A DNA stretch of 64,000 bases. Source: Escherichia coli (GTDB taxonomy: Bacteria; Pseudomonadota; Gammaproteobacteria; Enterobacterales; Enterobacteriaceae). The position numbers and the translations under genes are program-made. Below the pieces are notes generated by a model. It was given only the letters and a program-made list of their open reading frames with translations, was not told where the DNA came from and did not search any database. The stretch is from NCBI RefSeq assembly GCF_009931435.1, contig NZ_CP043414.1; one strand, 5' to 3'. Shown in pieces: positions 701-48,332 of the stretch (within the stretch, counting starts at the first letter, position 1; each line of letters begins with the position of its first letter).

Positions 701-823
701 GATGCTACAGGTTGTAACAAGTTGCTGTCCAGACGTAGCTCACAAATAGGAATACATCAAGATCTGGACATCTGATGAGCAATCCCTACAATCGCCGCGT
801 ACATTTCATTTTCAGGATACATC

Positions 824-3304: not shown

Positions 3305-4705
3305 ATGCCACATTCCTACGATTACGATGCCATAGTAATAGGTTCCGGCCCCGGCGGCGAAGGCGCTGCAATGGGCCTGGTTAAGCAAGGTGCGCGCGTC
3401 GCAGTTATCGAGCGTTATCAAAATGTTGGCGGCGGTTGCACCCACTGGGGCACCATCCCGTCGAAAGCTCTCCGTCACGCCGTCAGCCGCATTATAGAAT
3501 TTAATCAAAACCCACTTTACAGCGACCATTCCCGACTGCTCCGCTCTTCTTTTGCCGATATCCTTAACCATGCCGATAACGTGATTAATCAACAAACACG
3601 TATGCGTCAGGGATTTTACGAACGTAATCACTGTGAAATATTGCAGGGGAACGCTCGCTTTGTTGACGAGCATACGTTGGCGCTGGATTGCCCGGACGGC
3701 AGCGTCGAAACACTAACCGCTGAAAAATTTGTTATTGCCTGTGGTTCTCGCCCTTATCATCCAACAGATGTTGATTTCACCCATCCACGCATTTACGACA
3801 GCGACTCAATTCTTAGCATGCACCACGAACCGCGCCATGTACTTATCTATGGTGCTGGAGTGATCGGCTGTGAATATGCGTCGATCTTCCGCGGTATGGA
3901 TGTAAAAGTGGATCTGATCAACACCCGCGATCGTCTGCTGGCGTTTCTCGATCAGGAGATGTCAGATTCTCTCTCCTATCACTTCTGGAACAGTGGCGTA
4001 GTGATTCGTCACAACGAAGAGTACGAAAAGATCGAAGGCTGTGACGACGGTGTGATTATGCATCTGAAGTCGGGCAAAAAGCTGAAAGCCGACTGTCTTC
4101 TCTATGCCAACGGTCGTACCGGTAATACCGATTCGCTGGCGTTACAGAACATTGGGCTGGAAACTGACAGTCGTGGACAGCTGAAGGTCAACAGCATGTA
4201 TCAGACCGCACAGCCACACGTTTACGCGGTGGGCGACGTGATTGGTTATCCGAGCCTGGCGTCGGCGGCCTATGACCAGGGGCGCATTGCCGCGCAGGCG
4301 CTGGTGAAAGGCGAAGCCACCGCACATCTGATTGAAGATATCCCTACCGGTATTTACACCATCCCGGAAATCAGCTCTGTGGGCAAAACCGAACAGCAGC
4401 TGACCGCGATGAAAGTGCCATATGAAGTGGGCCGCGCCCAGTTCAAACATCTGGCACGCGCACAAATCGTCGGCATGAACGTGGGCACGCTGAAAATTTT
4501 GTTCCATCGGGAAACAAAAGAGATTCTGGGCATTCACTGCTTTGGCGAGCGCGCTGCCGAAATTATTCATATCGGTCAGGCGATTATGGAACAGAAAGGT
4601 GGCGGCAACACTATTGAGTACTTCGTCAACACCACCTTTAACTACCCGACGATGGCGGAAGCCTATCGGGTAGCCGCGTTAAACGGTTTAAACCGCCTGT
4701 TTTAA
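3305..4705 (+). CDS. sthA: Soluble pyridine nucleotide transhydrogenase
   Basis: 466-aa [28 protein letters not shown] with FAD/NAD-binding GxGxxG motifs; divergent from fabR. Confidence 0.95.
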
Positions 4706-5605
4706 CACTTTATCGAAATGGCCATCCATTCTTGCGCGGATGGCCTCTGCCAGCTGCTCATAGCGGCTGCGCAGCGGTGAGCCCGGACGATAAACCAGGC
4801 CAATAGTGCGGCGTGGTTCCGGCTTAATACACGGCAAATAAACAACCCCATCGCGTTTGCGCTCCGGCGGCACAGCCAGTGCAGGCAGTAAAGTGATCCC
4901 GCTACCTGCCGCCACCATGTTGCGCAGAGTTTCCAGGCTGGTCGCGCGGAAGTGTGTATCTTCATCCGCCCCGGCTTCAAAGCAGAAACCCATTGCCTGA
5001 TCGCGCAAACAGTGACCATCTTCCAGCATCAGCAGTTTTTCCCCTGCCAGATCGGCCATCGGTACGCATTCGCGGTTCGCCCACGGGTGATCTTCATAGA
5101 TAGCCAGCAACATTGGCTCATCAAACAACGGCACTTCAATGAATGCTTCGCTCTCTTTCACCAGCGCGAGGATCACGCAATCGAGTTTGCCGCTGTCCAG
5201 TTGCGCCAGTAACTGGTGGGTCTGTGCTTCATGCAGATACATTTCCAGCTTTGGAAAGGTCTGGTGCAGCATCGGGATAATATGCGGTAACAGGTAAGGC
5301 CCAACCGTTGGAATCAAACCAATATGCAGCGGTCCGGACATCGTCTCACCCTGCTGGCTTGCCATCTCTTTAAGGACTTTCACCTCACGCAGCACGGTAC
5401 GCGCCTGATCCACCAGCAGCATTCCCGCCTGGGTGAACAACACTTTACGGCTGGTCCGCTCCAGCAACATCACGCCCAGCTCATCTTCCAGCTTACGAAT
5501 TTGCCCGCTAAGCGTCGGCTGGCTAACGTGGCAGGAGTCTGCCGCACGCCGAAAATGGCGGTGTTCAGCCAATGCCACCAGGTACTCAAGATCACGAATA
5601 TTCAT
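4688..5605 (-). CDS. oxyR: LysR-family hydrogen peroxide-responsive regulator OxyR
   Basis: ORF 4688..5635; start placed at [44 protein letters not shown] (305 aa). Its 3' end overlaps the 3' end of sthA by about 18 nt, convergently. Confidence 0.95.
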
Positions 5606-5609
5606 TATC

Positions 5610-5700
5610 CATCCTCCATCGCCACGATAGTTCATGGCGATAGGTAGAATAGCAATGAACGATTATCCCTATCAAGCATTCTGACTGATAATTGCTCACA
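5610..5700. promoter_or_regulatory. oxyR-oxyS divergent promoter region with OxyR binding site
   Basis: Sequence gataggtagaatagcaatgaacgattatccctatcaagcattctgactgataattgctcaca lies between the oxyR start and the oxyS 5' end; recalled as the classical OxyR footprint. Confidence 0.6.
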
Positions 5701-5816
5701 GAAACGGAGCGGCACCTCTTTAACCCTTGAAGTCACTGCCCGTTTCGAGAGTTTCTCAACTCGAATAACTAAAGCCAACGTGAACTTTTGCGGATCTCCA
5801 GGATCCGCTTTTTTTT
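5701..5816 (+). ncRNA. oxyS: OxyS small regulatory RNA with its rho-independent terminator
   Basis: gaaacggagcggcacctctttaacccttgaagtcactgcccgtttcgagagtttctcaactcgaataactaaagccaacgtgaacttttgcggatctccaggatccgc followed by a T-run; divergent from oxyR. Confidence 0.85.
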
Positions 5817-5855
5817 ATTCTACAGGCCCACAGCAAGAGAGCCTGATAGTAACAG

Positions 5856-7139
5856 TTACTCAATCCGATCTTTGACAATAAAGAAGTAACACAGCGCCCC
5901 GGTGAATGTCACACAGGCCGCGATAACCAGCGCCAGATTAAACGAGTGCGTGGTATCCACTACCCAACCGGTTACGATCGGAGCAAAGGAAGCAAAAACA
6001 AAACTGCCAAAGTTTTGAATCCCGGCGATGGAAGCCACTTTTGTTTCTGACACCATCACCTGCACCAGTCCCCATGCAGATGTTCCCGCGAAATGCACGC
6101 AGAACAGCGCCATTGAGATAAACGCTACAGCCTGGGCTGGCGAGGAGGATTGCACGACCAGCAACGTGCCTAATGCCGACATCATCAAACCGCAGACAAT
6201 AGCCGTTTTACGCGTCTTCGCCAGGTCGTAGCCTTTTTTCGCCAGCCGATCGACAACAATACCGTTAACCCACATCCCGACCGCCGCCGCGAGGAAAGGA
6301 ATCGCCGCCACCCAACCGGTTTTCGCCAGACTGAAGCCTTGCTCGGCTTGTAAATAACCGGGTAACCACGCGATGTAGAGCCAACCGGTATAATTGACGC
6401 CAGAGAAACCTAAAATCATCCCCCAGGTTGTCCGATGCTTAAACAGCGCCAGCCACTCGCTAAATTGTAATTGTGGACGCGGTTTAACCGGCGCGGAGAG
6501 ATAGGTCCGTTCTTCGTCGGTCAGGACAAACTGCGCCCGGTTGCGATACCACGCGTACCAACAGATCCCAACCAGAATCCCCGCCACGCCGATGATGACG
6601 AACATTGCCCGCCAGCCCCATGCCAGCTGCATCAATACAAGAGCAGGAGGCGCAATAGCCTGACCGATAACGGTAGATGAGTTAAAAATCCCCAGCGCCG
6701 TGCCGCGTTCTTTTTGCGCATACCAGTCGGTGATCGACTTTACTCCCGCAGGCATAAATGGCGCTTCGCCAATACCCAGACCGATACGCATTAAAATAAA
6801 GTGGCTAAAAGAATTAACCATTCCTGTTAATGCCTGCATTAATGACCAGAATATTAAGCCTGCGCCTAAAACTATTCGTGGGCCAAAGCGGTCTAGCAAA
6901 ATACCGGAAGGGAGTTGTGAAAAACCATAAGACAGAGAAAATGCAGAAAGCAAAACGCCAAATTCTGTCGCCGATAATCCTAACTCGCCACGAATCGCTT
7001 CGCCTGCCACGCTCAATGACGAACGGTCGAGGAAATTAACGATCCCCGCCATAAATAATAAAACCAGCGTTACTGTCTGAATACGACGAATCCGTTGCGG
7101 TTTATTACCCGCAACACTGGTTGACACATCAACGTCCAT
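5856..7139 (-). CDS. MFS transporter of the anion:cation symporter type (hexuronate/sugar-acid transporter-like, DgoT/GudP/ExuT-like)
   Basis: 427-aa ORF with about 12 hydrophobic segments; N-terminal region LVLLFMAGIVNFLDRSSLSVAGEAIRGELGLSATEFGVLLSAFSLSYGFSQLPSGILLDRFGPR is typical of this family. Not in the K-12 oxyS-argH interval. Confidence 0.85.
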   Translation of the reverse strand: MDVDVSTSVAGNKPQRIRRIQTVTLVLLFMAGIVNFLDRSSLSVAGEAIRGELGLSATEFGVLLSAFSLSYGFSQLPSGILLDRFGPRIVLGAGLIFWSLMQALTGMVNSFSHFILMRIGLGIGEAPFMPAGVKSITDWYAQKERGTALGIFNSSTVIGQAIAPPALVLMQLAWGWRAMFVIIGVAGILVGICWYAWYRNRAQFVLTDEERTYLSAPVKPRPQLQFSEWLALFKHRTTWGMILGFSGVNYTGWLYIAWLPGYLQAEQGFSLAKTGWVAAIPFLAAAVGMWVNGIVVDRLAKKGYDLAKTRKTAIVCGLMMSALGTLLVVQSSSPAQAVAFISMALFCVHFAGTSAWGLVQVMVSETKVASIAGIQNFGSFVFASFAPIVTGWVVDTTHSFNLALVIAACVTFTGALCYFFIVKDRIE

Positions 7140-7205
7140 TTTTAGCTCCTTGAGCGGAATTAATCGATTTGCTGACTATTCAGAAAATAATTAAGCGAAC
7201 CGTTA

Positions 7206-8420
7206 TTACCAGTTCCACAATGTGCCATCTTCCAGTCGTGCGACGGGGAGATACGCCGGGTCATACGGATATTTCGCCGCCAGTTTCTCATCGAAAGAAA
7301 TACCCAGCCCCGGTTCATCGCCTGGGTGCATATAACCTTCATCGAAGCGCCAGCTGTGCGGGAAGACTTCAAGCATTTGTTCGGAATAGCCCATGTACTC
7401 CTGAACACCAAAGTTTGGCACCCAGAGGTCAAAATGCAGCGCCGCCGCATGACAAACAGGCGATAAATCTGAAGGGCCATGCGAACCGGTACGTACCTGA
7501 TAAAGCGATGCAAAATCGGCAATCCGTCGCATCCCGGTAATGCCGCCTGCATGGGTAATCGTCGTGCGAATATAGTCAATCAGCTGCTCTTCGATTAACT
7601 GCTTGCAGTCCCAGATACTGTTAAACACTTCACCGACCGCAATCGGCGTCACAGTATGCTGGCGAATCAGACGAAAACATTCCTGGTTCTCGGCAGGCGT
7701 CGGATCTTCCATCCACAACAGGCGGTAATCCTCAATGCTCTTCCCAAAGCGCGCCGCTTCGATAGGAGTCAGGCGATGGTGCATGTCATGCAACAGATGT
7801 TCGTTAAAACCGAACTTATTACGCACCGCTTCAAATAACTTCGGTGTAAAATCGAGATACTTTTCTGAAGACCACAACTGCTCTTCCGGCCACAGGCCTT
7901 TGGTTGCCGGTTCATACGCCAGTCCTTTGCCCTTCGCCAGGCCATAAGTGGTTTGCATACCCGGTACACCGCACTGCACACGAATCGCCTTAAAGCCCAT
8001 CTGCTGGTGCTTTGCATAGTCTTCAAGGACTTCATCAATCGTGCGCCCGGTGGTGTGGCAATAAACCATCACGCCTTCACGAGAAGCCCCACCAAGCAGT
8101 TGATACAATGGCATATTTGCCGCTTTGGCTTTGATATCCCACAACGCCATATCAATGGCAGAAATGGCCGACATCGTGACGGGGCCACGTCGCCAGTAAG
8201 CACCTTTATAAAAGAATTGCCAGATATCTTCGATACGGCTGGCATCGCGGCCAATTAATTGTGGACAAAGATGATCTTTCAGATAAGAAGCGACCGACAA
8301 TTCGCGACCATTTAATGTGGCATCTCCCAATCCACAAATTCCGCTTGCAGTGGTTATTTTAAGCGTAACGAAATTACGTCCTGGGCAAGTAACAAAAACA
8401 TCTGCAGCAATAATTTTCAT
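7206..8420 (-). CDS. Enolase-superfamily sugar-acid dehydratase, RspA/ManD (D-mannonate dehydratase)-like
   Basis: ORF 7206..8480; start placed at [47 protein letters not shown] (404 aa), closely resembling RspA/ManD N-termini. Likely co-transcribed with the MFS gene downstream. Confidence 0.85.
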
Positions 8421-8789
8421 TATTGCAATCTCCTGTGTTGTAAATAGACGCTTCAAACTTAATTTTACGCCTACTACCATACAAGAGAGAAAGGGCGATT
8501 ATTCAACCGTGATCACATTAAAAATAAAAATTTCCGCCGAGGAACAAAAATATCCTCAAATCTCACCTACACTATTAACTACCATCGTTAAAACAACGTG
8601 TTAAATAATCACATAACAAATTCCTTTAAGGAAAGGAGTTATAACAACAACAAAAGATAATCATATTTTACTTAATTCAATACGTATCGATAGGTTTATT
8701 TAAAAAGGATTTTTCGGAATGAGAGATGAAAAGAAGATACACAAGCAGGAAGAAATACGATTAATATTAGTTGCGGTAAGGGTAGCCGT

Positions 8790-8910
8790 TCCTCCCTTCC
8801 GCAACCCATTAACCGTTGAAGTCACAGACTATTTCAGGCATTTCTCAACTCAAAATAACGACAGCCAACGTGAACTTTATGGCTCTCCAGGATCTGCTTT
8901 GTTTTCCATC
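8790..8910 (+). repeat. Degenerate second copy of the oxyS 3' half (oxyS-like relic)
   Basis: 8813-8905 ccgttgaagtcacagactatttcaggcatttctcaactcaaaataacgacagccaacgtgaactttatggctctccaggatctgctttgttttcc aligns to oxyS 5725-5816 at roughly 75-80 percent identity by eye; the 5' part of oxyS is not recognisable. Confidence 0.7.
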
Positions 8911-10387
8911 AAACAACGGAGCTCAGCGCACTGGCTACCTGTTTAAAGCGAGCAAACCGTCGCCTGAGCATGTGTGCTTTTTCTACATTCGGTTCAAGAC
9001 GAATCACGTTGAGCTGCGTAGCCTTCATGGCCTGTTTGAATCCAGAATAAGCCCCTCCTCCTACTGCCGCACACATTGCAGCCGCTCTACAACCTGACTG
9101 TTCAATATCGACAATTTCAAGAGGCATTTTGCTGGCATCACAAAACATCTGCATCCAGATTCTGGAATGCGTTGGCCCGCCAGAGAAACGAATCGTTTGC
9201 AATGACTTATCAATCTCAATAAGACGGTCCTGATGCAACAAATGAGAAAAGACAACGCCCTGATAAATAGCGTACACCAAATCTTCTCTTTTATGATGCC
9301 CACACAGCCCCAAAAATCCCCCGCTTAATGCCTCATGGTAATTCGAGCCAAACAACCACGGGAAAAAGAGAATATCATTCTGTTTCTCATACCCTCGTTC
9401 CACCCACTCATTAATCACCCGATAACTGTCAGGAAGACCCGGTAAAAATTGCTGCAAGAACCATGTTAAATTACTGGCTGATGTAGGGCTTCCCTCATGG
9501 GCGAAAAATGTACCTGGAATGCTAAATTTCCCCCATACATAGGGATAATCAGAAGGAATAATGCGATCAAAGATTCGCGTTGCAATTGACCAGGTGCCAG
9601 CAACCGCACTTAACGTTGTACTGTCATAGATGCCAGAAGTGAGCGCCGCACCAACGACATCAAAAACACCACCAAAAACAGGCGTTCCGGCGAGAAGCCC
9701 ACATTGGCTGGCTGCTTCAGATGTCACAAACCCAGCTAAATCAGCGGAGCCAATAATATCGGGAACCTTACCCGCAACTTCCTTAATCTCAAATAGGCGA
9801 AAAAGTTCAGCATCATAAGCACTGGTATATTGATTATAAAAATTACTGCCTGAAATATTGGTTTCTTCACAAGCCAGTTTGCCAGTAAGCCGTGAACGTA
9901 TGTAATCATGAACCATCAAAATGGTTCCGATGCGGCCATAATTGTCAGTCTCATGTTTTTTCAACCAATGCAATAGTGCTACAGGGTGCGATGGCCAGAG
10001 CTGTTGCAGACTACGGTGATAACTTTCGCGGTCAATTCCTTGTTCTTTCCAGCTTGCAACCAGTTGTTGTGCGCGAGAATCAGAGGAAACAATGCCGTGT
10101 CGTAAGGGCTTACCTTGCCGGTCGAGCAGGTACAAACCTTTACCATGAGCAGAAAAACTGATGCCATCAATCTGACTCGCAGTAATATTGTTATCTGACA
10201 TCGACAGTGAAATGACCTGGCACGTTACCTTCCATAACGCCTCCATGTCGCGTTCGCAAAAACCAGGACATGGGCTTAACAGAGGTAACGCCTGCGAAGA
10301 GACACCTATTTCACGTCCTTCTGCCGTATAAATTCCCGCTTTGGTTTCTGTACCACCTAAATCGACACCAATAAAATACCGCTCCAT
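8909..10387 (-). CDS. FGGY-family carbohydrate kinase, L-xylulose/3-keto-L-gulonate kinase (LyxK)-like
   Basis: 492-aa ORF MERYFIGVDLGGTETKAGIYTAEGREIGV...; FGGY motifs and strong resemblance to LyxK throughout (DMAELW, HDYIR, EASPTSSGNL-like blocks). Confidence 0.85.
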   Translation of the reverse strand: MERYFIGVDLGGTETKAGIYTAEGREIGVSSQALPLLSPCPGFCERDMEALWKVTCQVISLSMSDNNITASQIDGISFSAHGKGLYLLDRQGKPLRHGIVSSDSRAQQLVASWKEQGIDRESYHRSLQQLWPSHPVALLHWLKKHETDNYGRIGTILMVHDYIRSRLTGKLACEETNISGSNFYNQYTSAYDAELFRLFEIKEVAGKVPDIIGSADLAGFVTSEAASQCGLLAGTPVFGGVFDVVGAALTSGIYDSTTLSAVAGTWSIATRIFDRIIPSDYPYVWGKFSIPGTFFAHEGSPTSASNLTWFLQQFLPGLPDSYRVINEWVERGYEKQNDILFFPWLFGSNYHEALSGGFLGLCGHHKREDLVYAIYQGVVFSHLLHQDRLIEIDKSLQTIRFSGGPTHSRIWMQMFCDASKMPLEIVDIEQSGCRAAAMCAAVGGGAYSGFKQAMKATQLNVIRLEPNVEKAHMLRRRFARFKQVASALSSVV

Positions 10388-10403
10388 GATCCCTCCTTAG
10401 TTT

Positions 10404-11267
10404 CTAAATATTATCCCAGCCGGCAAGGCGCATTTTCTCTTCAATCCATTGACGTGCATGAATAATTTCTAATAGAGGTTCCGTCGCTTTTTCTGTCCAC
10501 ATTTCTATCAGAAACGTTCCGCGATAATTAAGATTACGCAGGATCTTAAATAATTTAATAAAATCTACACACCCTTCACCAAAAGGAACGTCACGAAATT
10601 GCCCTGGAGAATCAGGCGTTACTGGGTACGTATCTTTAAGATGGATTGCGGCAATTCGATCAATCCCCTTTACCAGCTCACTTTCCAGTTCATTACCCCA
10701 TGCGGTCAGATTGCCAACATCCGGATAAACGGTAAACCAAGGGGAATTAATTTTTGTATCCAGGACTTTCCATTTACTAATAGAATTAATAAATGGCGTA
10801 TCCATGATCTCTACAGCACACATAACTTGTGCCGCTGCGGCCTGTTCAGCTGTCCAGGCCATCGCATCTTCAAACCAGGCGATAGTTTCTTCATTCTGCG
10901 GCTCATAATAAACGTCATAGCCTGCCAGTTGGATTGTTCGAATCCCCAAATCCTGCGCCAGGCGTAACGCCTTCAACATAATCGTACGTGCCTGCTGACG
11001 AGTATCTCTATCATGGCTACCAAATGGAAAACGCCGGTGAGCAGACAGGCACATTGTCGGAATACGGATCCCCGTTTGCTGAATGGCGCTAATAAGCTCC
11101 ATACGCTCGGTGAGCGACCAGTCCAGGCGGGCGAGTCGTTCATCATTCTCATCTACCGACATCTCAACAAAATCAAAACCGCAAGATTTAGCCAGGGCTA
11201 GTTTCTCTACCCAACTGGTATTCCTGGGTAGCGCTTTTTCATAAATACCTAACGGGTGGCGTCGCAT
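10404..11267 (-). CDS. L-ribulose-5-phosphate 3-epimerase (UlaE/SgbU family, xylose-isomerase-like TIM barrel)
   Basis: 287-aa ORF LGIYEKALP...GFDFVEMSVDENDERLARLDWS...MCLSAHRRFPFGS...IQLAGYDVYYE...YPDVGNLTAW...LIEMW, matching UlaE/SgbU nearly block for block. Confidence 0.85.
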   Translation of the reverse strand: MRRHPLGIYEKALPRNTSWVEKLALAKSCGFDFVEMSVDENDERLARLDWSLTERMELISAIQQTGIRIPTMCLSAHRRFPFGSHDRDTRQQARTIMLKALRLAQDLGIRTIQLAGYDVYYEPQNEETIAWFEDAMAWTAEQAAAAQVMCAVEIMDTPFINSISKWKVLDTKINSPWFTVYPDVGNLTAWGNELESELVKGIDRIAAIHLKDTYPVTPDSPGQFRDVPFGEGCVDFIKLFKILRNLNYRGTFLIEMWTEKATEPLLEIIHARQWIEEKMRLAGWDNI

Positions 11268-12343
11268 TATTTTCCCTCACGAGTGATCAATTGTTGTTGA
11301 AAGATTTTCCGGCTCTTATTCATGTCACGCTGCAACTGCCATTTTTGTTTGATGAATTTAAATGCCAGTGCGGCGATCAATGTGATCCCCCATACCGCCA
11401 GATTGAAATGCAAACTAAGTCCCAACAGACTAAGGCCGGTAGCAATAACCTGAAGCACAAGTAAGGCACAAAAAACATGACTGACTTTACCCGCCCCACC
11501 GAATGGATCTGTGCCTCCCAATACAATTGCAAGAACCGTCAAGAGCAGATAGGAATCGCCATAGCCCATACGCGCCGAATTAAATCGCGCGAGCATAATA
11601 AGACCTGCTAATACACACAACATGCTGGATATAGCATATATAGCAATTAATACGCGGTCGGTGCGAATACCGCTAAACCATGTGGCGTTAATATTACTGC
11701 CACACATATAAATCGTTTTTCCCGTACGGGTTTTGCCGAGGAACAGAGCTAAAGCAACGGTGGTGACGATAAAAATTATCATCGGTACTGGGATCCCCAT
11801 GATAACTTCAGACCCAATACTGCGGACTACTGGTGGCATACCACTTAAAGCTGCCCCCTTAGTCAGGTAAATACCGATACCACTAATAATGGTCATGCTA
11901 CCCAATGTGACCAAAATAGGGTGAGCGCCTATATGAGAAATAATTGACCCAGTAATAGCTCCAATGATGATGGCAATAAGCATCGCCCCGACAATAGCCA
12001 GGAAGAGCCAAAACAACTGACTACCTGTAGATGCATCTGCGGGTACATATTGAATCAACAGCCAGGCCATAAACAGGCTGGTCAGATTCGCAGTACCGAT
12101 GATTGCCAGATTGAGCCCCCCGCTCAACATGGGTATAAACATCGCAAACGTGAGCAACCCAAGCTCTGGCAATTGAAATGCAATGCTCAGAAAAGTATTG
12201 CCGGTGAAAAAACGCCCCGGCATTACCAGACTAAATAACACCACCGCAATAAAACATATTGATAATAAGCCTGAACTGGTACCATCTAGTGGAAAAAATA
12301 TCCGCTTGTTCATTTCGATCCTCCCGTTAGACGAAACCAACAT
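11267..12343 (-). CDS. Sugar ABC transporter permease (ribose/xylose-type)
   Basis: 358-aa polytopic membrane ORF in an operon with a second permease and a two-domain ATPase. True start may be the internal MNKRIFF Met, since the first codons overlap the upstream permease. Confidence 0.8.
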   Translation of the reverse strand: MLVSSNGRIEMNKRIFFPLDGTSSGLLSICFIAVVLFSLVMPGRFFTGNTFLSIAFQLPELGLLTFAMFIPMLSGGLNLAIIGTANLTSLFMAWLLIQYVPADASTGSQLFWLFLAIVGAMLIAIIIGAITGSIISHIGAHPILVTLGSMTIISGIGIYLTKGAALSGMPPVVRSIGSEVIMGIPVPMIIFIVTTVALALFLGKTRTGKTIYMCGSNINATWFSGIRTDRVLIAIYAISSMLCVLAGLIMLARFNSARMGYGDSYLLLTVLAIVLGGTDPFGGAGKVSHVFCALLVLQVIATGLSLLGLSLHFNLAVWGITLIAALAFKFIKQKWQLQRDMNKSRKIFQQQLITREGK

Positions 12344-13319
12344 CAGTTTCTTTACGTTTTTTGTAATGGGTCACACAAATCGCCGAGACAATAACCACTC
12401 CAATAACGATATTGACGAAATAACTCGAGATGCCAATCAAATTAAGGCCGTTTTTAAGAATACCGATAAGAAATACGCCCATAAGCGTACCAATGACCGT
12501 ACCACGTCCGCCTGATAAACTGGCACCGCCCAATACCGCTGCAGCCAGCACATCCAACTCTCCGCCAACCAATGCATTCGGCACAACTTCACTCATACGA
12601 TAAGCTTGCAGCATTCCACCAATTGCTGCAGCGGCACCAAGATAACCATAAGCAAACAGATAAATTAGCGACACCCGAATCCCAATACGTCTTGCTGATT
12701 CGGTATTCCCTCCCACGGCATAAAGCTGACGCCCAATATGGGTTTTGTTCATTATCATCCACGTCAGAAATGCCATTCCCAGCATAACCACTAACGGTAA
12801 TCCGATCTGGTAATCTTCTCCGCCAAATTCAAAACTCAGGAAAGAACGCTGCGTAATCCACCAATCCGGTAAATCGTAAATACTGTGGCCATTAGTCAAC
12901 CACATCAACATACCGAACAGTAGCGACTGCATACTAATCGTAATGATGATGGAAACGACATTAAGGTAATAAATAAGAATAGCGTTTATCAAACCAAAAA
13001 TGATGCCAAGAAAAACAGCAAACACCAGACAGAAAAATGGATTTGATAGCGTTTCATTAAGCAGTAACGACGCCACAACATATTGCACAACCGAAGCTAC
13101 TGCTGCAAAAGAGATATCAATTCCGCCAGTAACCAATACGACAAATAATCCGAGGGCGAAAATACCCGTTACGGCATAACTTTCCGAGAGATCGAGCAAG
13201 TTCTGTATTGATAAAAACTCATCGCTCATGATGGAAAAAAATACCAGCATGAGAACAATGACCCATCCTAACCAAGCTTCGACTGAACGAGGAAACCGCA
13301 GCCGCATAAAGCTAACCAT
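12327..13319 (-). CDS. Sugar ABC transporter permease (ribose/xylose-type)
   Basis: 330-aa polytopic membrane ORF; start overlaps the ATPase stop (translational coupling). Confidence 0.8.
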   Translation of the reverse strand: MVSFMRLRFPRSVEAWLGWVIVLMLVFFSIMSDEFLSIQNLLDLSESYAVTGIFALGLFVVLVTGGIDISFAAVASVVQYVVASLLLNETLSNPFFCLVFAVFLGIIFGLINAILIYYLNVVSIIITISMQSLLFGMLMWLTNGHSIYDLPDWWITQRSFLSFEFGGEDYQIGLPLVVMLGMAFLTWMIMNKTHIGRQLYAVGGNTESARRIGIRVSLIYLFAYGYLGAAAAIGGMLQAYRMSEVVPNALVGGELDVLAAAVLGGASLSGGRGTVIGTLMGVFLIGILKNGLNLIGISSYFVNIVIGVVIVSAICVTHYKKRKETDVGFV

Positions 13320-14829
13320 TAATCACCTCCGCCAACTGCTGCTCGGTATAATTCGAAGGCAACAGCTCATTAATAATCTTTCCGCGCTTCATATGAAAAA
13401 TACGATCGCAGTTATAATAAGCTTCTGGTGCTTCATCAGTAATTAATATCACTGAAATACCCACACCTGAAAGCCGATGAATAAGCTGGTAAATACTATC
13501 TTTTGCGCCAATATCTACACCTACCGTTGGCGCATCCAGAATTAAAACCTTAGGTCGTGTTAAAATCCATTTAGCCAGGACAACCTTTTGTTGATTGCCG
13601 CCAGATAGCGTTGAAAGTGGATTATTTGGATCGGTGACTTTAATATCCAAATCCTGGATCCACTCCTTGACTAAGGTTTCTTTTCGATTTTCATCAATAA
13701 ACCCCGATGCCGTCTTTAAACGATCCAGAATCGAGAGCACCATATTATCGCTGATAGATTGGGGTAATACGGCCCCCAGTGTCAGGCGATCTTCTGAAAC
13801 ATATGCTATTCCCAGTTTTACCGCATGCGTGTTGTCTTTAATTGTAACGGGCTTACCTTCCAGATAAATATCACCACTATCTGGTCGAGTAATACCGAAA
13901 AGACTCAATGCTAATTCAGTTCTCCCCGCACCAAGTAAACCACACAATCCCAGAACCTCGCCCTGGTGTAGTTTTAGAGAAACATCTTCAAATTGCCCTT
14001 TTCTGCATAATTTGTTTAGTTCAAGGACTACTTTGCCTTCAACGCTATTTGGTAGCTTCTTCTGGTGGACTATAGTTTTTCCGGTCATTAACTCAGTAAT
14101 ATCGCCCGGAGAAAGTTGATTGGCAGCCCACGTTCCAATTATCTCTCCATCACGGATGACCGTAATCCGATCTGAAATTTCCTTAACTTCATCAAGGCGG
14201 TGGCTAACAAAAACTACGGTAATATTTTTATCGCGTAAGTAATTCACTGTGCGTAGTAATTGATTAACTTCTGTACGCGTCAATGATGCCGTTGGCTCGT
14301 CCATGATGACTAACCGGGCATCGGCAATCAGAGCCCGGCAAATCGCGACCTGTTGGCGTTGTGCAATCGGCAAATGTTGTACTAACGCATCAGGATCGAG
14401 ATTGAATTGCAGCTCCTGAATTATTTTCTGCGATACATCTCGAAGTTGTTTTTTTCTGTGCAGCCCTAAATATCCCTTCAGGTTGTATTCAAAAGCGATA
14501 TTTTCAGCAACAGAAAGATTTGGGAATAAAGAAAGATCCTGATATATCACCTGAATACCCAGTTCCCGAGCTTTATCAGGAGAAAGACGAGTCCAGGACT
14601 TACCATCTATAATAATTTCACTTCCCGAATCAGGGACATAAACACCACACAGCGTTTTGATCAGAGTACTTTTACCACACCCATTCGCACCAGCAAGACA
14701 ATGAACCTCACCTTTATTTAAGGTAAGATTGATATTCTTTAGAGCCCTATGGCCACCGAAACTTTTCGTTAGTGACCTTAGCGTCACTAATGGTTGCTCC
14801 GCATTCTTCTCTATAATATGAGGCATCAT
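13312..14829 (-). CDS. Sugar ABC transporter ATP-binding protein with duplicated ABC domains (RbsA/MglA type)
   Basis: 505-aa ORF with two Walker A sites (GANGCGKST and GLLGAGRTEL) and two signature motifs (LSGGNQQK region). Confidence 0.88.
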   Translation of the reverse strand: MMPHIIEKNAEQPLVTLRSLTKSFGGHRALKNINLTLNKGEVHCLAGANGCGKSTLIKTLCGVYVPDSGSEIIIDGKSWTRLSPDKARELGIQVIYQDLSLFPNLSVAENIAFEYNLKGYLGLHRKKQLRDVSQKIIQELQFNLDPDALVQHLPIAQRQQVAICRALIADARLVIMDEPTASLTRTEVNQLLRTVNYLRDKNITVVFVSHRLDEVKEISDRITVIRDGEIIGTWAANQLSPGDITELMTGKTIVHQKKLPNSVEGKVVLELNKLCRKGQFEDVSLKLHQGEVLGLCGLLGAGRTELALSLFGITRPDSGDIYLEGKPVTIKDNTHAVKLGIAYVSEDRLTLGAVLPQSISDNMVLSILDRLKTASGFIDENRKETLVKEWIQDLDIKVTDPNNPLSTLSGGNQQKVVLAKWILTRPKVLILDAPTVGVDIGAKDSIYQLIHRLSGVGISVILITDEAPEAYYNCDRIFHMKRGKIINELLPSNYTEQQLAEVING

Positions 14830-14892
14830 AATATTCCTGAATACGACTAAAGGAATTCCGGGTCAAATTTGACCCGGTGATTTACGGTAAAA

Positions 14893-15897
14893 TTACAAGC
14901 CTAGCTTCACTAAACGTCGTGTATTTTCAAGATCGAGCTTTTCTGGATTATCACTATAAATAGTGTTGTTATTAACCTTGATCTCGCCCATATCACCGAT
15001 TTTTACACCGTCTTTAATAGGTTCACCGTTCATCATTGCCGTCGCAACCTGGACAAAAACCTTACCCGCAATCATAGGGTTTGAAATATATCCCCCATCA
15101 ATGGCACCTTTTTCGAGTAGCTTAATTCCCTGACCTGGAGTGAAGGTTCCAAAAACGCAAATTGCATCATTTTTCTTCCGCTTATCAATAGCACGCCCCG
15201 CACCAATTGGTCCTTGTGAACCAAATGACATAATGCCTTTAAGATCTTTATATTTAGACATTAAATCGTTCGTCGTGCGCATTGAATCATCCACCGACTC
15301 AGCAACACCAAAACGATCTTCAACCAACGTCATATTTGGATAATGTTCTTTTTGATAGGCAATCGCGGCATTGGCCCAGTCATTTACCAAAGGCACAGTC
15401 AGACTGCCGACAAACATGGCGTATTTACCTTCTTCGCCCATACACTTCGCCATATCTTTCATATGATTGGCACCCATTGTCTGGGTATTTAACAACTCAA
15501 AATCCCAATCTGCATTTTTTTGATCTGGTGATTCGTGGGTAATAACTTTAATACCGGCTTCTTGTGCACGCTTAAGTACAGGTTCAAGAACCTTTGCATC
15601 GTTAGGAACAACACCAATAACATCCACTTTTCGTGCAATTAAATCTTCAATCGCCCGAACCTGTTCAGCTGGATCTGCCGTTGTAGGGCCGACCTGCCAT
15701 GCATCAACCCCCAATAGTTTTCCTTCATTTTTAATGCCTTGTTCCATCACATTAAACCAGGGAATTCCACCGACTTTTACTACTACCCCCATCGTAAAAG
15801 GTTTATTCGCTTTTTGTGATGTTACAGTCTGATCAGCCCATGCAGCAGTGGAAGATAATACGGTAGCAATAAGGCAGGGTAAGATTAATTTTTTCAT
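14893..15897 (-). CDS. Periplasmic sugar-binding protein of the ABC transporter
   Basis: 334-aa ORF with signal peptide MKKLILPCLIATVLSSTAAWA and a periplasmic-binding-protein type I fold pattern; first gene after the regulator. Confidence 0.8.
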   Translation of the reverse strand: MKKLILPCLIATVLSSTAAWADQTVTSQKANKPFTMGVVVKVGGIPWFNVMEQGIKNEGKLLGVDAWQVGPTTADPAEQVRAIEDLIARKVDVIGVVPNDAKVLEPVLKRAQEAGIKVITHESPDQKNADWDFELLNTQTMGANHMKDMAKCMGEEGKYAMFVGSLTVPLVNDWANAAIAYQKEHYPNMTLVEDRFGVAESVDDSMRTTNDLMSKYKDLKGIMSFGSQGPIGAGRAIDKRKKNDAICVFGTFTPGQGIKLLEKGAIDGGYISNPMIAGKVFVQVATAMMNGEPIKDGVKIGDMGEIKVNNNTIYSDNPEKLDLENTRRLVKLGL

Positions 15898-16019
15898 CGT
15901 AATTTCCTTAAGAAATAGTTCAGGTGTCAGGAAAACTCGATATAATATCGACCTGACTATTTATATAATTTATAATCCCTTAGGCATTGATTAATAATTT
16001 AGACAATAAATAACGCCTA

Positions 16020-16829
16020 TTATTTATCAACCTCCACAATGTTTAATTGTGGAAATTGTGTTCGATACCGAGTATCTGTACAAACATTAGTCACCAGAAT
16101 ATCGATTTCATCCAGCGTGCATATTTTACTAAATGCATACTGTTCAAACTTAGTGGAGTCGACCAGCAATATTTTTTGTCCTGACACCTGAAGCATCACC
16201 TGTTTAAGTCTGGCATTAATTTCACTGCCATCGCGGACACCATTCCCCAGATTCAACCCCTGGCATGAAAAGAAAAAACTGTTGATTTGAAAATTTCGGA
16301 TCGCACTCTCTGCAACCGGGCCATGAAAATCATCATGTCGCTCAGAATACTCACCACCGATACCAATAATTCGAACTCGATCACGGCAAGCTAACGCCTG
16401 AATTATCCGTAATGAATTTGTAACTACGGTAACATCTATATCGGGAATTTGACGAGCTAAAAACCAACAAGTACTACTGTTATCCATTAAAATACAATCA
16501 CCAGGGTGAATAAATTGCAATGCGGCCTTCGCAATTCTGGCTTTTATATCAGGATTTTCTTCAGTCCGTTTACGGAATGATTCCGCACGATCGATACTAT
16601 TATCTTGCCACGCATTATCGGCGAGCATAACCGGAGCGCTATCAGATGAATCCAGAGCGACCGCGCCACCAAAGCTACGGATTAACTTTTTGTTGCGCTC
16701 CAGTACCGTTAAATCCCGACGAATTGTCTCAGGAGACGCTTTAAATAATCGTGATAATTCAGTTACCCGCACAGCACCTTGTTTTTGTACATGTGCGCAT
16801 ATCATTTTATGGCGCTCTGCCTGCAACAT
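16020..16829 (-). CDS. DeoR-family transcriptional regulator
   Basis: 269-aa ORF with N-terminal HTH (VRVTELSRLFKASPETIRRDLTVLERNKKLIRSFGGA) and a DeoR C-terminal sugar-phosphate-binding region. Confidence 0.85.
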   Translation of the reverse strand: MLQAERHKMICAHVQKQGAVRVTELSRLFKASPETIRRDLTVLERNKKLIRSFGGAVALDSSDSAPVMLADNAWQDNSIDRAESFRKRTEENPDIKARIAKAALQFIHPGDCILMDNSSTCWFLARQIPDIDVTVVTNSLRIIQALACRDRVRIIGIGGEYSERHDDFHGPVAESAIRNFQINSFFFSCQGLNLGNGVRDGSEINARLKQVMLQVSGQKILLVDSTKFEQYAFSKICTLDEIDILVTNVCTDTRYRTQFPQLNIVEVDK

Positions 16830-17270
16830 AGTATCGGTCCGTTATTATCAAATTAGCATGCTTATATAATTAACTGTTCCCTCATAAAATAAAGTGATAG
16901 GAATCAAGATTCATTTTATAATTATAATCGCAAACAGGAATGGTGATCTTTATCACAAATTAAATTGAGAACACTCTACTATTTGACATTACTTTGAGAT
17001 ATCGGTCACTAAATAAGTCTTATTCTGCCATCTAACGAAAAATTTAAATACAAAAACAAAAATAATCGGGCATAGCAATCGCTTCCATTCATGACCGAAT
17101 ACGCCCGAATAAAACCGTTTATACCCACTTATCCTCTTTCGTTGCCTTCTTACATGCCTTGAATATTTTACATTTCTTATATTCAGCGTAATTTAGGAAA
17201 CATAATTTATGAGCAAAAAAAGCCCAAACTCAAAAGTTAAAGTTTATTTATATAATACATACAGATTATC

Positions 17271-17975
17271 GTGGAGTTAAAAATGGATATGCTAAAGGAA
17301 AAAGTTCTTGCTGCGAATTTATCATTACCCCTTCATCAGTTAGTGACGTTTACCTGGGGAAATGTTAGTGGTGTTGATCGCGAAAAAGGTGTCATGGTTA
17401 TTAAACCTTCTGGGGTCGAATACAGCCAAATGGGCATTGCAGATATGGTGGTAGTGGATTTACAAAGTGGTGAAGTTATTGATGGACACAGGAAACCCTC
17501 TTCAGACACCGATACTCATCTGGCGCTATACCGTGCTTTCCCGGATATTGGTGGTATCGTTCATACCCATTCCCGACACGCCACAATATGGGCTCAGGCC
17601 GGAAAAGATCTCACGGCCTTTGGGACAACCCACGCTGATTATTTCTACGGCACTATCCCCTGTACACGCCCCATGAAGGATGACGAAATTAATGGACAAT
17701 ATGAATATGAAACGGGGCGAGTGATTATTGAAACGTTCAGACAACGAGAAATATCTCCCGCTGACATTCCGGCTGTTTTAGTAAACAGTCATGGCCCCTT
17801 TGCCTGGGGAACTGATCCCGCGAACGCCGTGCATAACGCCGTTGTACTTGAAGAAATTGCCTATATGAATCTCTTTACACAACAACTACAGCCCCATCTT
17901 ACGGCTATTCAACAGCCTCTACTGGATAAGCATTTTTTACGCAAGCATGGTGCCAATGCTTATTACGGGCAGTAA
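17271..17975 (+). CDS. L-ribulose-5-phosphate 4-epimerase (AraD/SgbE/UlaF class II aldolase family)
   Basis: 234-aa ORF; [41 protein letters not shown]...[17 protein letters not shown]...[16 protein letters not shown]...HSHGPFAWG...[17 protein letters not shown] is very close to AraD. Start may be one of the downstream Mets. Confidence 0.88.
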
Positions 17976-18024
17976 CCCTCTTAGCATGGCCTGGCGTTTT
18001 GCCAAGCCATAAATCGCCTAAGAC

Positions 18025-19398
18025 TTACTCCAACCGCGCCTGCGCAAAAGCAATCGCCTGCGCCACCTGCTGCGGTGAGACGCCGCCTTTTGCCGCACGC
18101 TTGTCGAGGCACGATTGCAGCGACAGAATCGGATAGACATCTTCGCCAATCACCTGACTGAATTTCTGCAACTCACTGAGCGGCAGATCTTCCAGCGGTT
18201 TGCCCTGACGAATGGCTTCCACCACCGCTTCACCAACAATATGGTGCGCCTCGCGGAACGGCACACCTTTCGCCACCAGGTAATCCGCCAGTTCAGTGGC
18301 GTTCGCATACCCCTGCTGCGCCGCTTCCTGGCAACGTGGGCGTTTCACCTGAATGCCGTCCAGCACCAGCGCCGCCATATGCAGGCAGTCCAGCCAGGTA
18401 TCGAGCGCGTCGAATAAGCCCTCTTTGTCTTCCTGCATATCTTTGTTGTAAGCCAGCGGCAAACCTTTCAGCGTCATCATCATGCCAGTCAACGCGCCCT
18501 GAACACGACCGCATTTACCCCGAATCAGCTCCAGCGCATCCGGGTTTTTCTTCTGCGGCATTAATGATGAACCGGAAGTCACGCGATCAGAAAGCTCCAC
18601 AAAACCCGCTTCGCCGGTGTTAAAGAAAATCAGATCTTCGGCAAAACGCGACAAATGCACCATACCGATAGCGGCGGCAGAAAGCAGTTCCAGCACGTGG
18701 TCGCGGTCAGAAACGCTGTCGAGACTGTTACGGGTCGCCGAGGCAAAGCCCAGCCAGCCTGCTAACTGTTCACGGTCGATTTCATAAGCCGTTCCCGCCA
18801 GTGCGCCACAGCCTAACGGGCTGACATCCAGACGCTTAAGCGCATCCTGCAAACGACTTTCATCACGCGCCAGCATCTCAACATAGGCCAGGCACCAGTG
18901 CGCGAACGTCACCGGCTGGGCGCGTTGCAGGTGAGTGTAACCAGGCATTACCGCGTCCTGATTATTCTGCGCGGTCTCGACCAGAGCGGATTGTAACTGT
19001 CGGTTAGCCGTCAGTAACTCGCTAACGGTATCTTTGCACCACAGTTTCAGGTCAGTCGCTACCTGATCATTACGGCTACGCCCGGTGTGCAGTTTTTTGC
19101 CTAACTGGCCCACTTTGTCGATCAGTTTGCCTTCTACCCAGCTATGGATATCTTCAGCGTCGCTTTCAAGAATTTGTTGTGGTCTGGCGCGAACATCTTC
19201 CAGCAGCACATTGAGCGCCTCTTCCAGTTGCACCTGTTCTTCTGCGGTTAACACGCCTACCGTTACCAGCGCTTTGGACCAGGCCACAGAGCCAACAATA
19301 TCCTGCTCCGCCAGACGGTAATCAAAGCGCAGTGAGTCGTTGAATTGTTTAAACCGTTGATCTGCTGCCTGGGTAAAACGCCCGCCCCAAAGTGCCAT
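18025..19398 (-). CDS. argH: Argininosuccinate lyase
   Basis: 457-aa [47 protein letters not shown], full-length ArgH. Confidence 0.95.
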
Positions 19399-19458: not shown

Positions 19459-20235
19459 TTAAGCTAAAATCCGCGTACCCATCGGCATACCGTTAAACAG
19501 TGCCGGAAGCTGTTCCGCATGACGCCAGGAAGCGATATCTACCGGGCGGCCCAGCGTGCGCGCAGCATCCAGCGCCGCGTTCACTTTCACTATCATGCCG
19601 TCAGTAATAATGCCCTGCTCAATCAGTTGTTCTGCTTTCGCGGCGGTCATTTCGGCAATACGTTGCCCTTTGCCGTCGAGAATACCGCTGACATCAGAGA
19701 GCAAAATCAGATCTGCGCCCAGCGTTGCCGCCAGCGCCGTCGCCGCCTGGTCGGCATTGACGTTCATCAGTTGCCCTTCGTCTGTTACGCCAATGGAGCT
19801 GACCACCGGCAGATAACCGTTCTCCAGCAATGTGTTGATAAGCTTAGGCGAACCTGGCTGCGCCAGTCCAACATGGCCTAACTCTTCATCGAGCTGGGTC
19901 ACTTTTACGCTGTCGCCGTCACCAAGAAACAGGCCTACGCCAGCAATCTGATGTTTCTTCGCCCACGCCAGCAAGGTTTTATTTGCCGTTCCCGCCAGCG
20001 CCCCGGTGATAATGTCTATCTGATCCGCAGGCGTCACCCGCAGGCCATTTTTCTTTTTCACCGGCAGATTCAGCCCTTTCATTAGTTCATCCACCACGCA
20101 GCCGCCGCCGTGAACAATCACCAGCGGACGCTGATGTGACTCACGATAATTCACCAGTGCGCTAAACAGACGTTCCAGCGCCTCTTCGCTATCCAACAGT
20201 ACGCCGCCCAGTTTGATAATTAATGGATTCATCAT
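19459..20235 (-). CDS. argB: Acetylglutamate kinase
   Basis: ORF 19459..20313; start placed at [30 protein letters not shown] (258 aa). Confidence 0.93.
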
Positions 20236-20242
20236 TGCACCC

Positions 20243-21247: not shown

Positions 21248-21400
21248 CGGGGCTATTCACCTTCTTATGTCTGGTTGCCTGGTTAAACGTAAAACATTCA
21301 CCTTACGGCTGGTGGGTTTTATTACGCTCAACGTTAGTGTATTTTTATTCACAATTAATGCATGAATATTGATACTATCATGACCAGAGGTGTGTCAACA
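21248..21400. promoter_or_regulatory. Divergent argE / argCBH control region with ARG boxes
   Basis: AT-rich intergenic region containing tattcacaattaatgcatgaatattgatac, which resembles tandem ArgR operator half-sites; placement matches the known bipolar argECBH operon. Confidence 0.5.
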
Positions 21401-22552: not shown

Positions 22553-22680
22553 AACGCAGGCTGGATAAGGCGTTTACGCCGCATCCGGCACCGTTGTCAA
22601 ACGCCAGCGCCGCAATAATGTCGGATGCGATGCTTACGCATCTTATCCGACCTACACTTTTGGTGTTATGTGCGGCGAAT
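22553..22680. repeat. REP (repetitive extragenic palindrome) cluster
   Basis: gcaggctggataaggcgtttacgccgcatccggcac and gtcggatgcgatgcttacgcatcttatccgacctaca are classical REP units. Confidence 0.7.
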
Positions 22681-22903
22681 TTTTAACATTCCCATAAGTT
22701 ACGCTTATTTAAAGCGTCGTGAATTTAATGGCGTAAATTCCTGCTATTTATTCGTTTGCTGAAGCGATTTCGCAGCATTTGACGTCATCGCTTTTACGTG
22801 GCTTTATAAAAGACGACGAAAAGCAAAGCCCGAGCATATTCGCGCCAATGCGACGTGAAGGATACAGGGCTATCAAACGATAAGATGGGGTGTCTGGGGT
22901 AAT

Positions 22904-48298: not shown

Positions 48299-48332
48299 AA
48301 TATCATTTATCAGTCTATTTATTTAACAAGGA

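Follow-up and report, generated by a model that had tools for sequence, protein, structure and literature searches.

A two-part sugar-utilisation interval between oxyS and argH in Escherichia coli, with a decayed oxyS copy at its inner junction

How did 12.2 kb of sugar-utilisation genes come to lie between oxyS and argH in a strain of Escherichia coli, when K-12 MG1655 has a gap of 54 nt between the same two genes? We addressed this question using a 64,000-nt stretch of contig NZ_CP043414.1 (RefSeq assembly GCF_009931435.1), hereafter called the window, whose orientation is the reverse of the K-12 map. We give a probability of roughly 70% to the following answer: two independent accessory modules, A and B, make up the interval; they are alternative occupants of the oxyS-argH site, and their composite formed once and then spread. 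A preliminary description of this DNA had stated that K-12 has argH directly next to oxyS and that extra DNA is present here, which is borne out; its count of eleven inserted genes needs correction to ten, two in module A and eight in module B.

The site is flanked by core genes on both sides, in the order sthA, oxyR, oxyS, the ten open reading frames (ORFs), argH, argB, argC, argE and ppc (Table 1). The extra DNA extends from position 5817, directly past the T-run of the oxyS terminator, to position 18024, the base preceding the argH stop codon, and none of the K-12 spacer sequence is left between oxyS and argH of the window. Three states of the site were found in E. coli, namely empty, A alone and A followed by B. 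The sequence from oxyS through the last T of its terminator is common to the empty and A-only states, and at the other end the sequence differs between all three states as far as the argH stop codon.

The two modules are of unlike base composition. Module A has a GC content of 0.502 and a GC content at third codon positions (GC3) of 0.50-0.55, slightly under that of typical core genes (z = -1.3 and -2.6) and still within the core range. Module B has a GC content of 0.430 and GC3 values of 0.34-0.47, with a mean of 0.395 as against 0.565 for the 32 other ORFs of the window (Mann-Whitney p = 4.5e-6), and the spacer between the modules has a GC content of 0.35. These measurements agree with the earlier impression of a core-like A and an AT-rich B: the composition computed across the interval is not uniform, the outcome on which that two-module view had been made to depend.

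The distribution of the modules was established in a survey of 5,426 complete E. coli genomes, 5,421 of which are covered by the three discrete states. The empty state, with a contiguous K-12-type junction, is present in 3,553 genomes (65.5%) and A alone in about 1,722 (about 31.7%), while module B is found in 146 (2.7%), all of them A+B or derived from it; in total, module A is present at at least 95% identity in 1,868 genomes. No genome of the survey has B alone. A probe spanning the A/B junction (8560-9060) matched 145 genomes, always over its full length and always with the decayed oxyS copy described below, at at least 99% identity in 9 genomes and at a uniform 93.6% in 136. The single B genome without this junction was considered as a B-only candidate and rejected, as an IS1 insertion sequence (IS) has taken the place of a stretch that begins in the 5' part of the A transporter gene, includes manD and the junction and ends at the 3' end of the B kinase gene, which makes the genome a deletion derivative of the composite. 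All 146 copies of B share one junction or derive from it. The uniform identity of the 136 genomes suggests a single clonal group, one member of which, NMBU_W05E18, is documented as sequence type (ST) 38 of phylogroup D (PMC7311804).

The state of the site varies even within phylogroups: the O25b:H4-ST131 genome MB1341 is empty and Nissle 1917 has A alone. Discrete contents thus alternate at this one site, as at a hotspot, and they do so also between close backgrounds, as in the A+B window and the A-only strain R32_14_1F, whose flanking DNA is identical. Chromosomal hotspots of E. coli hold alternative accessory cassettes between conserved core genes, and these cassettes are exchanged by recombination between the homologous flanks. 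The oxyS-argH site resembles them in its alternative states between the same core features, its lack of mobility genes and its raised argH diversity, and differs in that a copy of the boundary small RNA (sRNA) gene, now a pseudogene, marks the inner junction. Nearly all pairs of haplotypes differ by ~4-5% in argH, and in one pair of strains, A-only and empty, the argH sequences are the same except for differences clustered in the last ~250 nt, by the site. A literature search for an argH/oxyR hotspot found no relevant paper on the site.

The oxyS-like relic that had been described at the module junction is real according to a repeat search, a shuffling test and Rfam. The part of oxyS that it covers begins at about nt 13 and ends 3 nt past the T-run, and it is 79-81% identical to the functional gene over about 105 nt (8801-8905). 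The two copies are in the same orientation and bracket module A; they form the direct-repeat families D1/D3/D5, with an offset of 3,089-3,090 nt, and are the sole long direct repeat in positions 5600-18200. The local alignment score of the relic is 99, as against a maximum of 27 for shuffled sequences. The Rfam OxyS model (RF00035) yields 30.1 bits (E = 4e-4) and its gathering score of 75 is not reached; many pairs are non-canonical, and the terminator has a disrupted stem and an interrupted T-run (TTTGTTTT). No OxyR-dependent promoter is present 5' of the relic, where the sequence is homologous to that upstream of manD in A-only genomes and not to the oxyR-oxyS intergenic region. These features are those expected of a promoterless, pseudogene-like oxyS remnant rather than of a second oxyS gene. 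The relic is somewhat closer to the oxyS of E. coli than to that of Citrobacter (73-77%). A 12-nt inverted repeat, GTTGCGGTAAGG/CCCTTCCGCAAC (8770-8805), spans 8783/8784, where the manD-upstream sequence meets the relic; its presence may be due to chance or may have to do with the way the join formed. No microhomology could be established at the A/B join. We also looked for an oxyS remnant in the manD-argH spacer of A-only genomes and rejected it, since Rfam gave no match at E<=10; a 29-nt similarity of that spacer to the relic terminator had a shuffle p of about 0.05 and was treated as not significant.

An sRNA gene at the boundary and a partial duplicate of it at the inner junction resemble the attachment-site duplications made by integrases. 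Two classical islands could thus have been inserted in turn by site-specific or transpositional machinery, with oxyS as the attachment site in the manner of tRNA and transfer-messenger RNA genes. Such an origin is highly improbable, as the duplicate is about 105 nt long at 80% identity rather than a short exact attachment core, and each state replaces the whole spacer to the argH stop codon. The ten ORFs are all metabolic, transport or regulatory, with no integrase, excisionase, transposase or IS among them, and the search of positions 5600-18200 found no att-like repeats in the interval and no matching repeat at the argH end. A PHROGs search of four of the proteins returned generic families only, with no phage link, and no plasmid matches were seen in the sequence searches, which did not include a phage collection. 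The lack of integrase, IS and att-like repeats argues that the hotspot works by homologous allele exchange and not by site-specific insertion. In this sense 'acquisition' means allele exchange, not the insertion of an element, and the window genome received a pre-formed junction.

Sequence identity switches sharply in the upstream region of manD. The A+B and A-only haplotypes are 94-100% identical on the manD side of position ~8542 and only 62-67% identical beyond it, over the ~240 nt that can be aligned; megablast of 8481-8714 against A-only genomes reports 81-82%. Past the alignable part the haplotypes are unrelated, with the relic and B on one side and, on the other, a REP (repetitive extragenic palindromic)/naRNA4-like element (28 bits, below the gathering score) followed by the haplotype's own argH terminator. 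This element and its terminator, at 23176-23256 in the compared A-only locus, are absent from the A+B and empty haplotypes.

Divergence at four-fold sites separates the histories of the two modules. Between the window and KTa008, an ST38-type genome, it is 0.093 in the left core, 0.081 in A, 0.031 in B and 0.155 in the right core; B differs from A (p = 5e-5) and from the left core (p = 3e-8), and A does not differ from the left core (p = 0.5). The A-only strain D7 gives 0.091 for the left core and 0.095 for A. In the comparison with Escherichia albertii, the values are 0.366 for the left core, 0.216 for the remnant of the A transporter gene, 0.142 for B and 0.271 for the right core. In both comparisons between lineages, the flanking core genes exceed B about 2-5-fold in synonymous divergence (dS). 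Since A co-diverges with the left core and B does not, the modules have separate histories; the decoupling of cassette and core divergence, another property of hotspots, was found for B. B was exchanged between lineages long after their split.

The window and one of its close relatives come near to a before-and-after pair. The window belongs to a divergent E. coli-like group, being 95-96% identical in its right flank and about 97.3% in its left flank to three ordinary E. coli. R32_14_1F, a goat strain of the same group, has A alone, 99.8% identical to that of the window, with the A-only upstream haplotype, and shows no mismatches with the window over 19.5-25.5 kb. The genome 24A16CRGN010 and eight others carry A+B at 99.8-99.9% identity to the window but are 4-13% different in argB-argE. 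As side observations on this flank, the sequences on either side of the tract common to R32_14_1F and the window differ by 1-5%, so that it looks like a recently shared imported tract, and the argB-argC-argE region (19459-25555) has a dS of 0.17-0.40 relative to ordinary E. coli, with argE near the level of E. albertii.

These data bear on whether the whole 12 kb block was built in a foreign donor and entered Escherichia once, its composition being a mosaic of the donor. One junction common to all carriers and the failure to find a B-only Escherichia would fit such an entry, which we nevertheless consider very unlikely. The coding divergence of A is 0.081-0.095, compared with 0.087-0.093 for the left-flank core, and equals that found with A-only genomes; A in A+B genomes is therefore the resident E. 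coli A, and the near-identity of A in the A-only strain R32_14_1F points the same way. Outside Escherichia, homologues of A are located at the rsp locus and not by B, and no sampled non-Escherichia genome has A and B together.

Module B alone does occur outside Escherichia. The same eight-gene operon, in the same order, is present in Serratia, Erwinia, Pantoea, Yersinia (including Y. pestis) and Providencia, and on a contig labelled Salmonella Newport. In Citrobacter sp. MGH106 and Cu233, C. amalonaticus and Atlantibacter, B lies exactly between argH and oxyR, and no homologue of an A gene was found between the kinase gene and oxyR in these loci. A full-scoring Rfam oxyS (91-95 bits) is present in two of the three such loci tested, both from Citrobacter, and not in that of Atlantibacter. 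The oxyS-kinase spacer of Citrobacter and Atlantibacter has a hairpin after oxyS, and a homologous one terminates argH in the empty state of E. coli. The modules thus occur alone, A in E. coli and B in Citrobacter and Atlantibacter, as the preliminary description had proposed to check; together with composition and unequal divergence, these intermediates support its proposal of two independent acquisitions at one hotspot. The tie of B to this site predates E. coli, and 'insertion relative to K-12' describes a layout without implying polarity.

The B proteins of E. coli are nearest those of Citrobacter and Atlantibacter, with identities of 93-95% for the binding protein, 90% for the 3-epimerase, 87-90% for the permeases, 88% for the ATPase, 81-86% for the regulator, 80-82% for the 4-epimerase and 68-70% for the kinase. 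Replacement of the kinase gene was considered and rejected, as in every taxon pair no other gene of the operon evolves as fast, and the ratios are proportional. Among 5.8 billion proteins, matches to the kinase outside Escherichia reach at most 70%, with none in the 70-98% range, and therefore no sampled foreign genus is the recent donor of B. A scan of species-representative genomes found no Escherichia locus with B and no closer outside donor.

The presence of B at the same site in other genera, with a protein tree that roughly follows the species tree, raises the question of whether the entire block of A, relic and B is ancestral in Escherichia, the A-only and empty states being successive deletions with no acquisition within the genus. 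The relic has decayed by ~20%, comparable to neutral divergence along a single branch at genus depth, the haplotypes upstream of manD are about 35% diverged, which makes the polymorphism old, and the composite or a deletion derivative of it is found in E. albertii and in two E. coli lineages. Deletions do occur, both by IS1 and in E. albertii. Set against this is the dS of B, which, being so far under that of the flanking core, requires horizontal movement; moreover, B is confined to 2.7% of genomes, with 136 in the clone-like group and 9 in another. The distal upstream region and tail of the A-only state are not a shortened form of those of the composite but belong to a separate haplotype, which has a REP element and an argH terminator of its own and no significant oxyS remnant, the GC3 of B has not ameliorated, and the species-representative scan revealed no Escherichia locus with B. 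We consider an ancestral block unlikely.

E. albertii, whose members turned up in the regulator and binding-protein clusters and only by cluster look-up, provides a further derivative. Three contigs have the arrangement argE-argC-argB-argH-B, followed by a 187-residue fragment of the major facilitator superfamily (MFS) transporter of module A and by oxyS-oxyR-sthA. Relative to the window, 2.4 kb are deleted (6468-8889 in the alignment), and the join keeps the 3' tail of the relic, ...GCTTTGTTTTCCA, beside the kinase stop codon. Some E. albertii strains thus carry a deletion derivative of the same composite. On one of the three contigs no gene was called at permease 2, although the DNA still aligns.

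As to how the composite formed, we infer one illegitimate join, between the far-upstream region of manD on an A-bearing allele and the 5' part of oxyS on a B-bearing allele, and, on the oxyR/oxyS side, a single homologous exchange. The route would be homology-facilitated illegitimate recombination or Campbell-type integration of a circle, and the product would be a full oxyS, A, a promoterless oxyS copy that has since decayed, and B. Both routes combine one homologous arm with one non-homologous join and leave the arm directly duplicated. The likeness to them lies in the duplicated oxyS arm on either side of the inserted DNA; the difference is that the event proposed here is ancient and read from a decayed scar. 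B, the relic and the distal manD-upstream segment would later have spread between Escherichia lineages, including E. albertii, by homologous recombination, with module A or oxyR as the left arm and argH as the right arm. The use of A as the left arm would account for the finding of B only in A-bearing genomes, and spread by way of homologous arms would explain the sharp switch at ~8542 and the unusual diversity of argH.

Several observations weigh against this composite model or complicate it. No B-only Escherichia has been found, so that one parental allele is unobserved in the genus, and the order of events cannot be polarised, as A may have entered a B allele or B an A allele. The low GC3 of B in E. 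coli is unexplained if B has long been in Escherichia: its GC content tracks that of the host in Atlantibacter, Yersinia, Erwinia and Providencia, where for the first three it has ameliorated, whereas it is 6-9 points below the flanks in E. coli and two Citrobacter species. Divergence within B is uneven, from 0.008 in the 3-epimerase gene to 0.07 in the ATPase gene, and non-coding sequences at and inside B show 5-9 differences per 100 nt between the two E. coli lineages, compared with 3% at four-fold sites; the control region between the DeoR and 4-epimerase genes has 5-8 differences per 100 nt, a faster divergence than that of the coding parts. Such uneven and non-coding divergence indicates a mosaic transfer history of B, not a single tract.

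For the age of the system, the ~35% divergence of the upstream haplotypes and the ~20% decay of the relic suggest a structural polymorphism roughly as old as the genus Escherichia. B is carried by E. coli, by the divergent E. coli-like lineage and by E. albertii. Tentatively, a genus-old polymorphism may have been kept by selection for sugar niches, with B crossing species by way of the A and argH arms and providing dedicated high-affinity import and catabolism of L-xylulose (an L-ketopentose); this combination is unlikely to hold in all its parts. We know of no characterised bacterial ATP-binding cassette (ABC) importer for L-xylulose. More speculatively still, transcripts of the B operon that run on over the relic would be complementary to the conserved linker of OxyS (CCAACGTGAACTTT, which is intact in the window) and, as antisense RNA, might titrate the sRNA.

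Module A can be related to the rsp locus. Its ManD protein scores 730.6 bits against the equivalog model NF043051 (cut-off 550) over residues 1-404, which places it in the ManD subgroup of the enolase superfamily; it is ~89% identical to the RspA structure 4il2, and solved ManD/RspA structures match it at E values of about 1e-269. A longer manD ORF extends to 8480, and the annotated start differs. Orthologues of the MFS transporter (84-89%) are encoded at the rsp locus of Raoultella, Kluyvera, Cedecea and Atlantibacter, next to genes for an rspA-like ManD, a Zn-dehydrogenase, a protein of the mannitol-dehydrogenase family and a GntR regulator; in Kluyvera, manD is followed by the MFS gene on one strand, as in module A. 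The proximal leader of manD contains an rspA-type block, composed of CTTGTATGGTAGTAG (a 12-mer, 8473-8484) and TGTGATCAC, ~64 nt upstream of the ATG. This block is also present in K-12 rspA and in four other genera, so that it is invariant across five genera. When the sequence upstream of manD was compared by BLAST with that upstream of rspA in other genera, no match was found; only the invariant block of 13-15 nt is common to them. On these grounds module A is best read as a two-gene rspA-type pair translocated from the rsp locus with its promoter retained. It differs from the rspAB operon and its regulator RspR (YdfH) in its location, in the lack of rspB and in a mutated left half of the RspR box: the published box is ATACnnGTAT (Shimada et al. 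2021, PMC8249747), and the left half reads TCTC in the module A promoter. With this degenerate half-site, RspR control is uncertain, and the rspA paralogue may have escaped RspR repression. Module A would serve the uptake of an aldonate or of an acid sugar derived from a uronate, with D-mannonate converted to 2-keto-3-deoxygluconate and passed to the KdgK/Eda route of the host.

Module B is functional and under purifying selection: the ratio of non-synonymous to synonymous divergence (dN/dS) of its genes relative to E. albertii is 0.01-0.15, and B is therefore maintained by selection. It encodes the components of an Aau/Rbl-type importer, namely a binding protein homologous to AauA and RblA, a two-domain ATPase and two permeases, together with a trio of LyxK-, SgbU- and SgbE-type enzymes, all in one transcription unit or divergon. 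The binding protein matches the Klebsiella structure 3D02 and AauA of enterohaemorrhagic E. coli (EHEC; 9I1M) at E values of about 1e-84, with slightly more than half of the aligned residues identical by eye; for 9I1M, E = 5e-84 over residues 38-309. The kinase reaches the cut-off of no curated model (XylB, 200 as against 380), and the names given to it in the sources, L-xylulokinase or 3-keto-L-gulonate kinase, are predictions. None of the ten genes encodes a 3-keto-L-gulonate-6-phosphate decarboxylase of the SgbH/UlaD type, and the module B gene set includes no reductase, isomerase or dehydrogenase.

From this gene content we infer a pathway in which a ketopentose would be imported by the ABC transporter and phosphorylated, L-xylulose 5-phosphate would be converted to L-ribulose 5-phosphate by the 3-epimerase, and this to D-xylulose 5-phosphate by the 4-epimerase, with the DeoR regulator controlling the divergent promoters. 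In the absence of an SgbH decarboxylase and a YiaK reductase, the pathway could begin only from a pentulose and not from a keto-gulonate. The substrate is most likely a ketopentose, with L-xylulose as the simplest candidate, because L-ribulose needs no 3-epimerase and keto-gulonates need the absent decarboxylase. D-ribulose is a high-affinity ligand of AauA (Cottam et al. 2025, PMC12307932), but the presence of L-series 3- and 4-epimerases in place of the Rbl isomerase points to an L-ketopentose rather than D-ribulose for module B. Two points would count against this assignment, the mere 43% identity of the kinase to LyxK and the fact that the characterised relative of the binding protein binds D-ribulose and not L-xylulose.

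Comparison with known systems places module B between two types. The yiaK-S/lyxK-sgbH-sgbU-sgbE and ula systems of K-12 have the same trio (43%, 71% and 72% identity) and also end at D-xylulose 5-phosphate, with a tripartite ATP-independent periplasmic (TRAP) transporter (YiaMNO) or a phosphotransferase system (PTS) where module B has an ABC importer; the regulator of yiaK-S is of the IclR type (PlaR, formerly YiaJ) and that of module B of the DeoR type. The Aau system of EHEC and the Rbl system of Citrobacter rodentium share the binding-protein family, and the combination of an ABC importer with a dedicated FGGY kinase is that of Rbl, whereas the genomic site and the regulator differ and the Rbl isomerase is replaced by L-series epimerases. 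Module B is a locus distinct from rbl, which was reported to be absent from 949 E. coli genomes (PMC12307932). With regard to expression signals, consensus scans for promoters and terminators found fewer promoter-like sites than in shuffled sequences, an uninformative outcome, and no convincing DeoR operator emerged when the control regions were searched for repeats. Between the binding-protein and ATPase genes, at 14858-14877, there is a strong hairpin rich in GC, CCGGGTCAAATTTGACCCGG; intra-operon hairpins of this kind often set the excess of the binding protein over the transporter.

Table 1. Features of the oxyS-argH interval and its borders, in window coordinates
Feature	Position	Strand	Evidence or remark
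sthA	3305-4705	+	
oxyR	4688-5635	-	
oxyS sRNA gene, functional	5701-5809, with terminator T-run to 5816	+	Rfam OxyS 133 bits, full length; left boundary
MFS transporter, 427 aa, anion:cation symporter (ACS)/D-galactonate-transporter type (module A)	5856-7139	-	TIGR00893 2A0114 275 bits, below cut-off
ManD (D-mannonate dehydratase), RspA paralogue, 404 aa (module A)	7206-8420	-	NF043051 equivalog; RefSeq annotation manD
Proximal manD promoter/leader	8421-8542	-	122 nt, 94-100% across all A alleles (alignment of seven genomes)
Distal manD-upstream segment, specific to the A+B haplotype	8543-8783		Homologous to the A-only haplotype at only 62-67%
Decayed oxyS copy (relic)	about 8784-8908	+	oxyS from about nt 13 to T-run + 3 nt
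FGGY sugar kinase, LyxK-like, 492 aa, last operon gene (module B)	8909-10387	-	43% to K-12 LyxK, full length
L-xylulose-5-phosphate/L-ribulose-5-phosphate 3-epimerase, SgbU/UlaE type (module B)	10404-11267	-	NF009689 476 bits, cut-off 200; 71% to SgbU
ABC permease 1, 348 aa by RefSeq start (module B)	11267-12313	-	ORF extends to 12343
ABC permease 2 (module B)	12327-13319	-	
Two-domain sugar ABC ATPase (module B)	13312-14829	-	
Periplasmic substrate-binding protein, Aau/Rbl (ketopentose-binding) family (module B)	14893-15897	-	Closest solved relatives 3D02, 9I1M
DeoR/GlpR-family regulator (module B)	16020-16829	-	
Divergent control region, AT-rich	16830-17282		GC about 0.33; between DeoR regulator and 4-epimerase genes
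L-ribulose-5-phosphate 4-epimerase, SgbE/AraD type (module B)	17283-17975	+	NF009002 434 bits, cut-off 386; 72% to SgbE; divergent, convergent with argH
Spacer with hairpin, 49 nt, state-specific	17976-18024		Between 4-epimerase gene and argH; right boundary
argH	18025-19398	-	Right homology arm; unusually diverse

Other features were noted in the neighbourhood. Nissle 1917 has a two-gene insert between fabR and sthA, coding for a citrate-proton symporter and an M20 aminoacylase (11969-14494 of the compared locus), which is present neither in the window nor in the other comparison genomes and constitutes a second small variable site, 3 kb from oxyS-argH. The 5' part of btuB (window 1-1000) is ~87% identical to every comparison genome, including the nearest relatives, and the following kilobases are 95-98% identical, so that it is a locally hyper-divergent receptor allele. 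A second AT-rich cluster (43702-50897, GC 0.40-0.48) contains three paralogous UshA/5'-nucleotidase-like genes, a 375-residue ORF (45388-46515) and a gene for a Tsx-like nucleoside channel. Lastly, a truncated transposase ORF of the ISAs1 family, matching only the C-terminal half of the model, is found at 56064-56681.

The oxyS-argH site is a core-flanked recombination hotspot with alternative sugar-utilisation cassettes. It is of an ordinary kind and leaves the understanding of hotspots and of sugar operons unchanged, while its history is unusually readable. It provides a natural example of two unrelated accessory modules fused at a core-genome hotspot with no mobile-element machinery, the scar being a pseudogenised copy of an sRNA gene. 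In the proposed model, a genome must possess the commoner module, which supplies the homology arm, before it can receive the rarer one. B is a marker of a successful multidrug-resistant clone group, of a divergent E. coli-like lineage and of some E. albertii strains, and its binding protein is a member of the family through which, as recent work has shown, gut pathogens gain access to D-ribulose. If B does confer the use of L-xylulose or of another rare pentulose, it would be a candidate niche determinant of these lineages.

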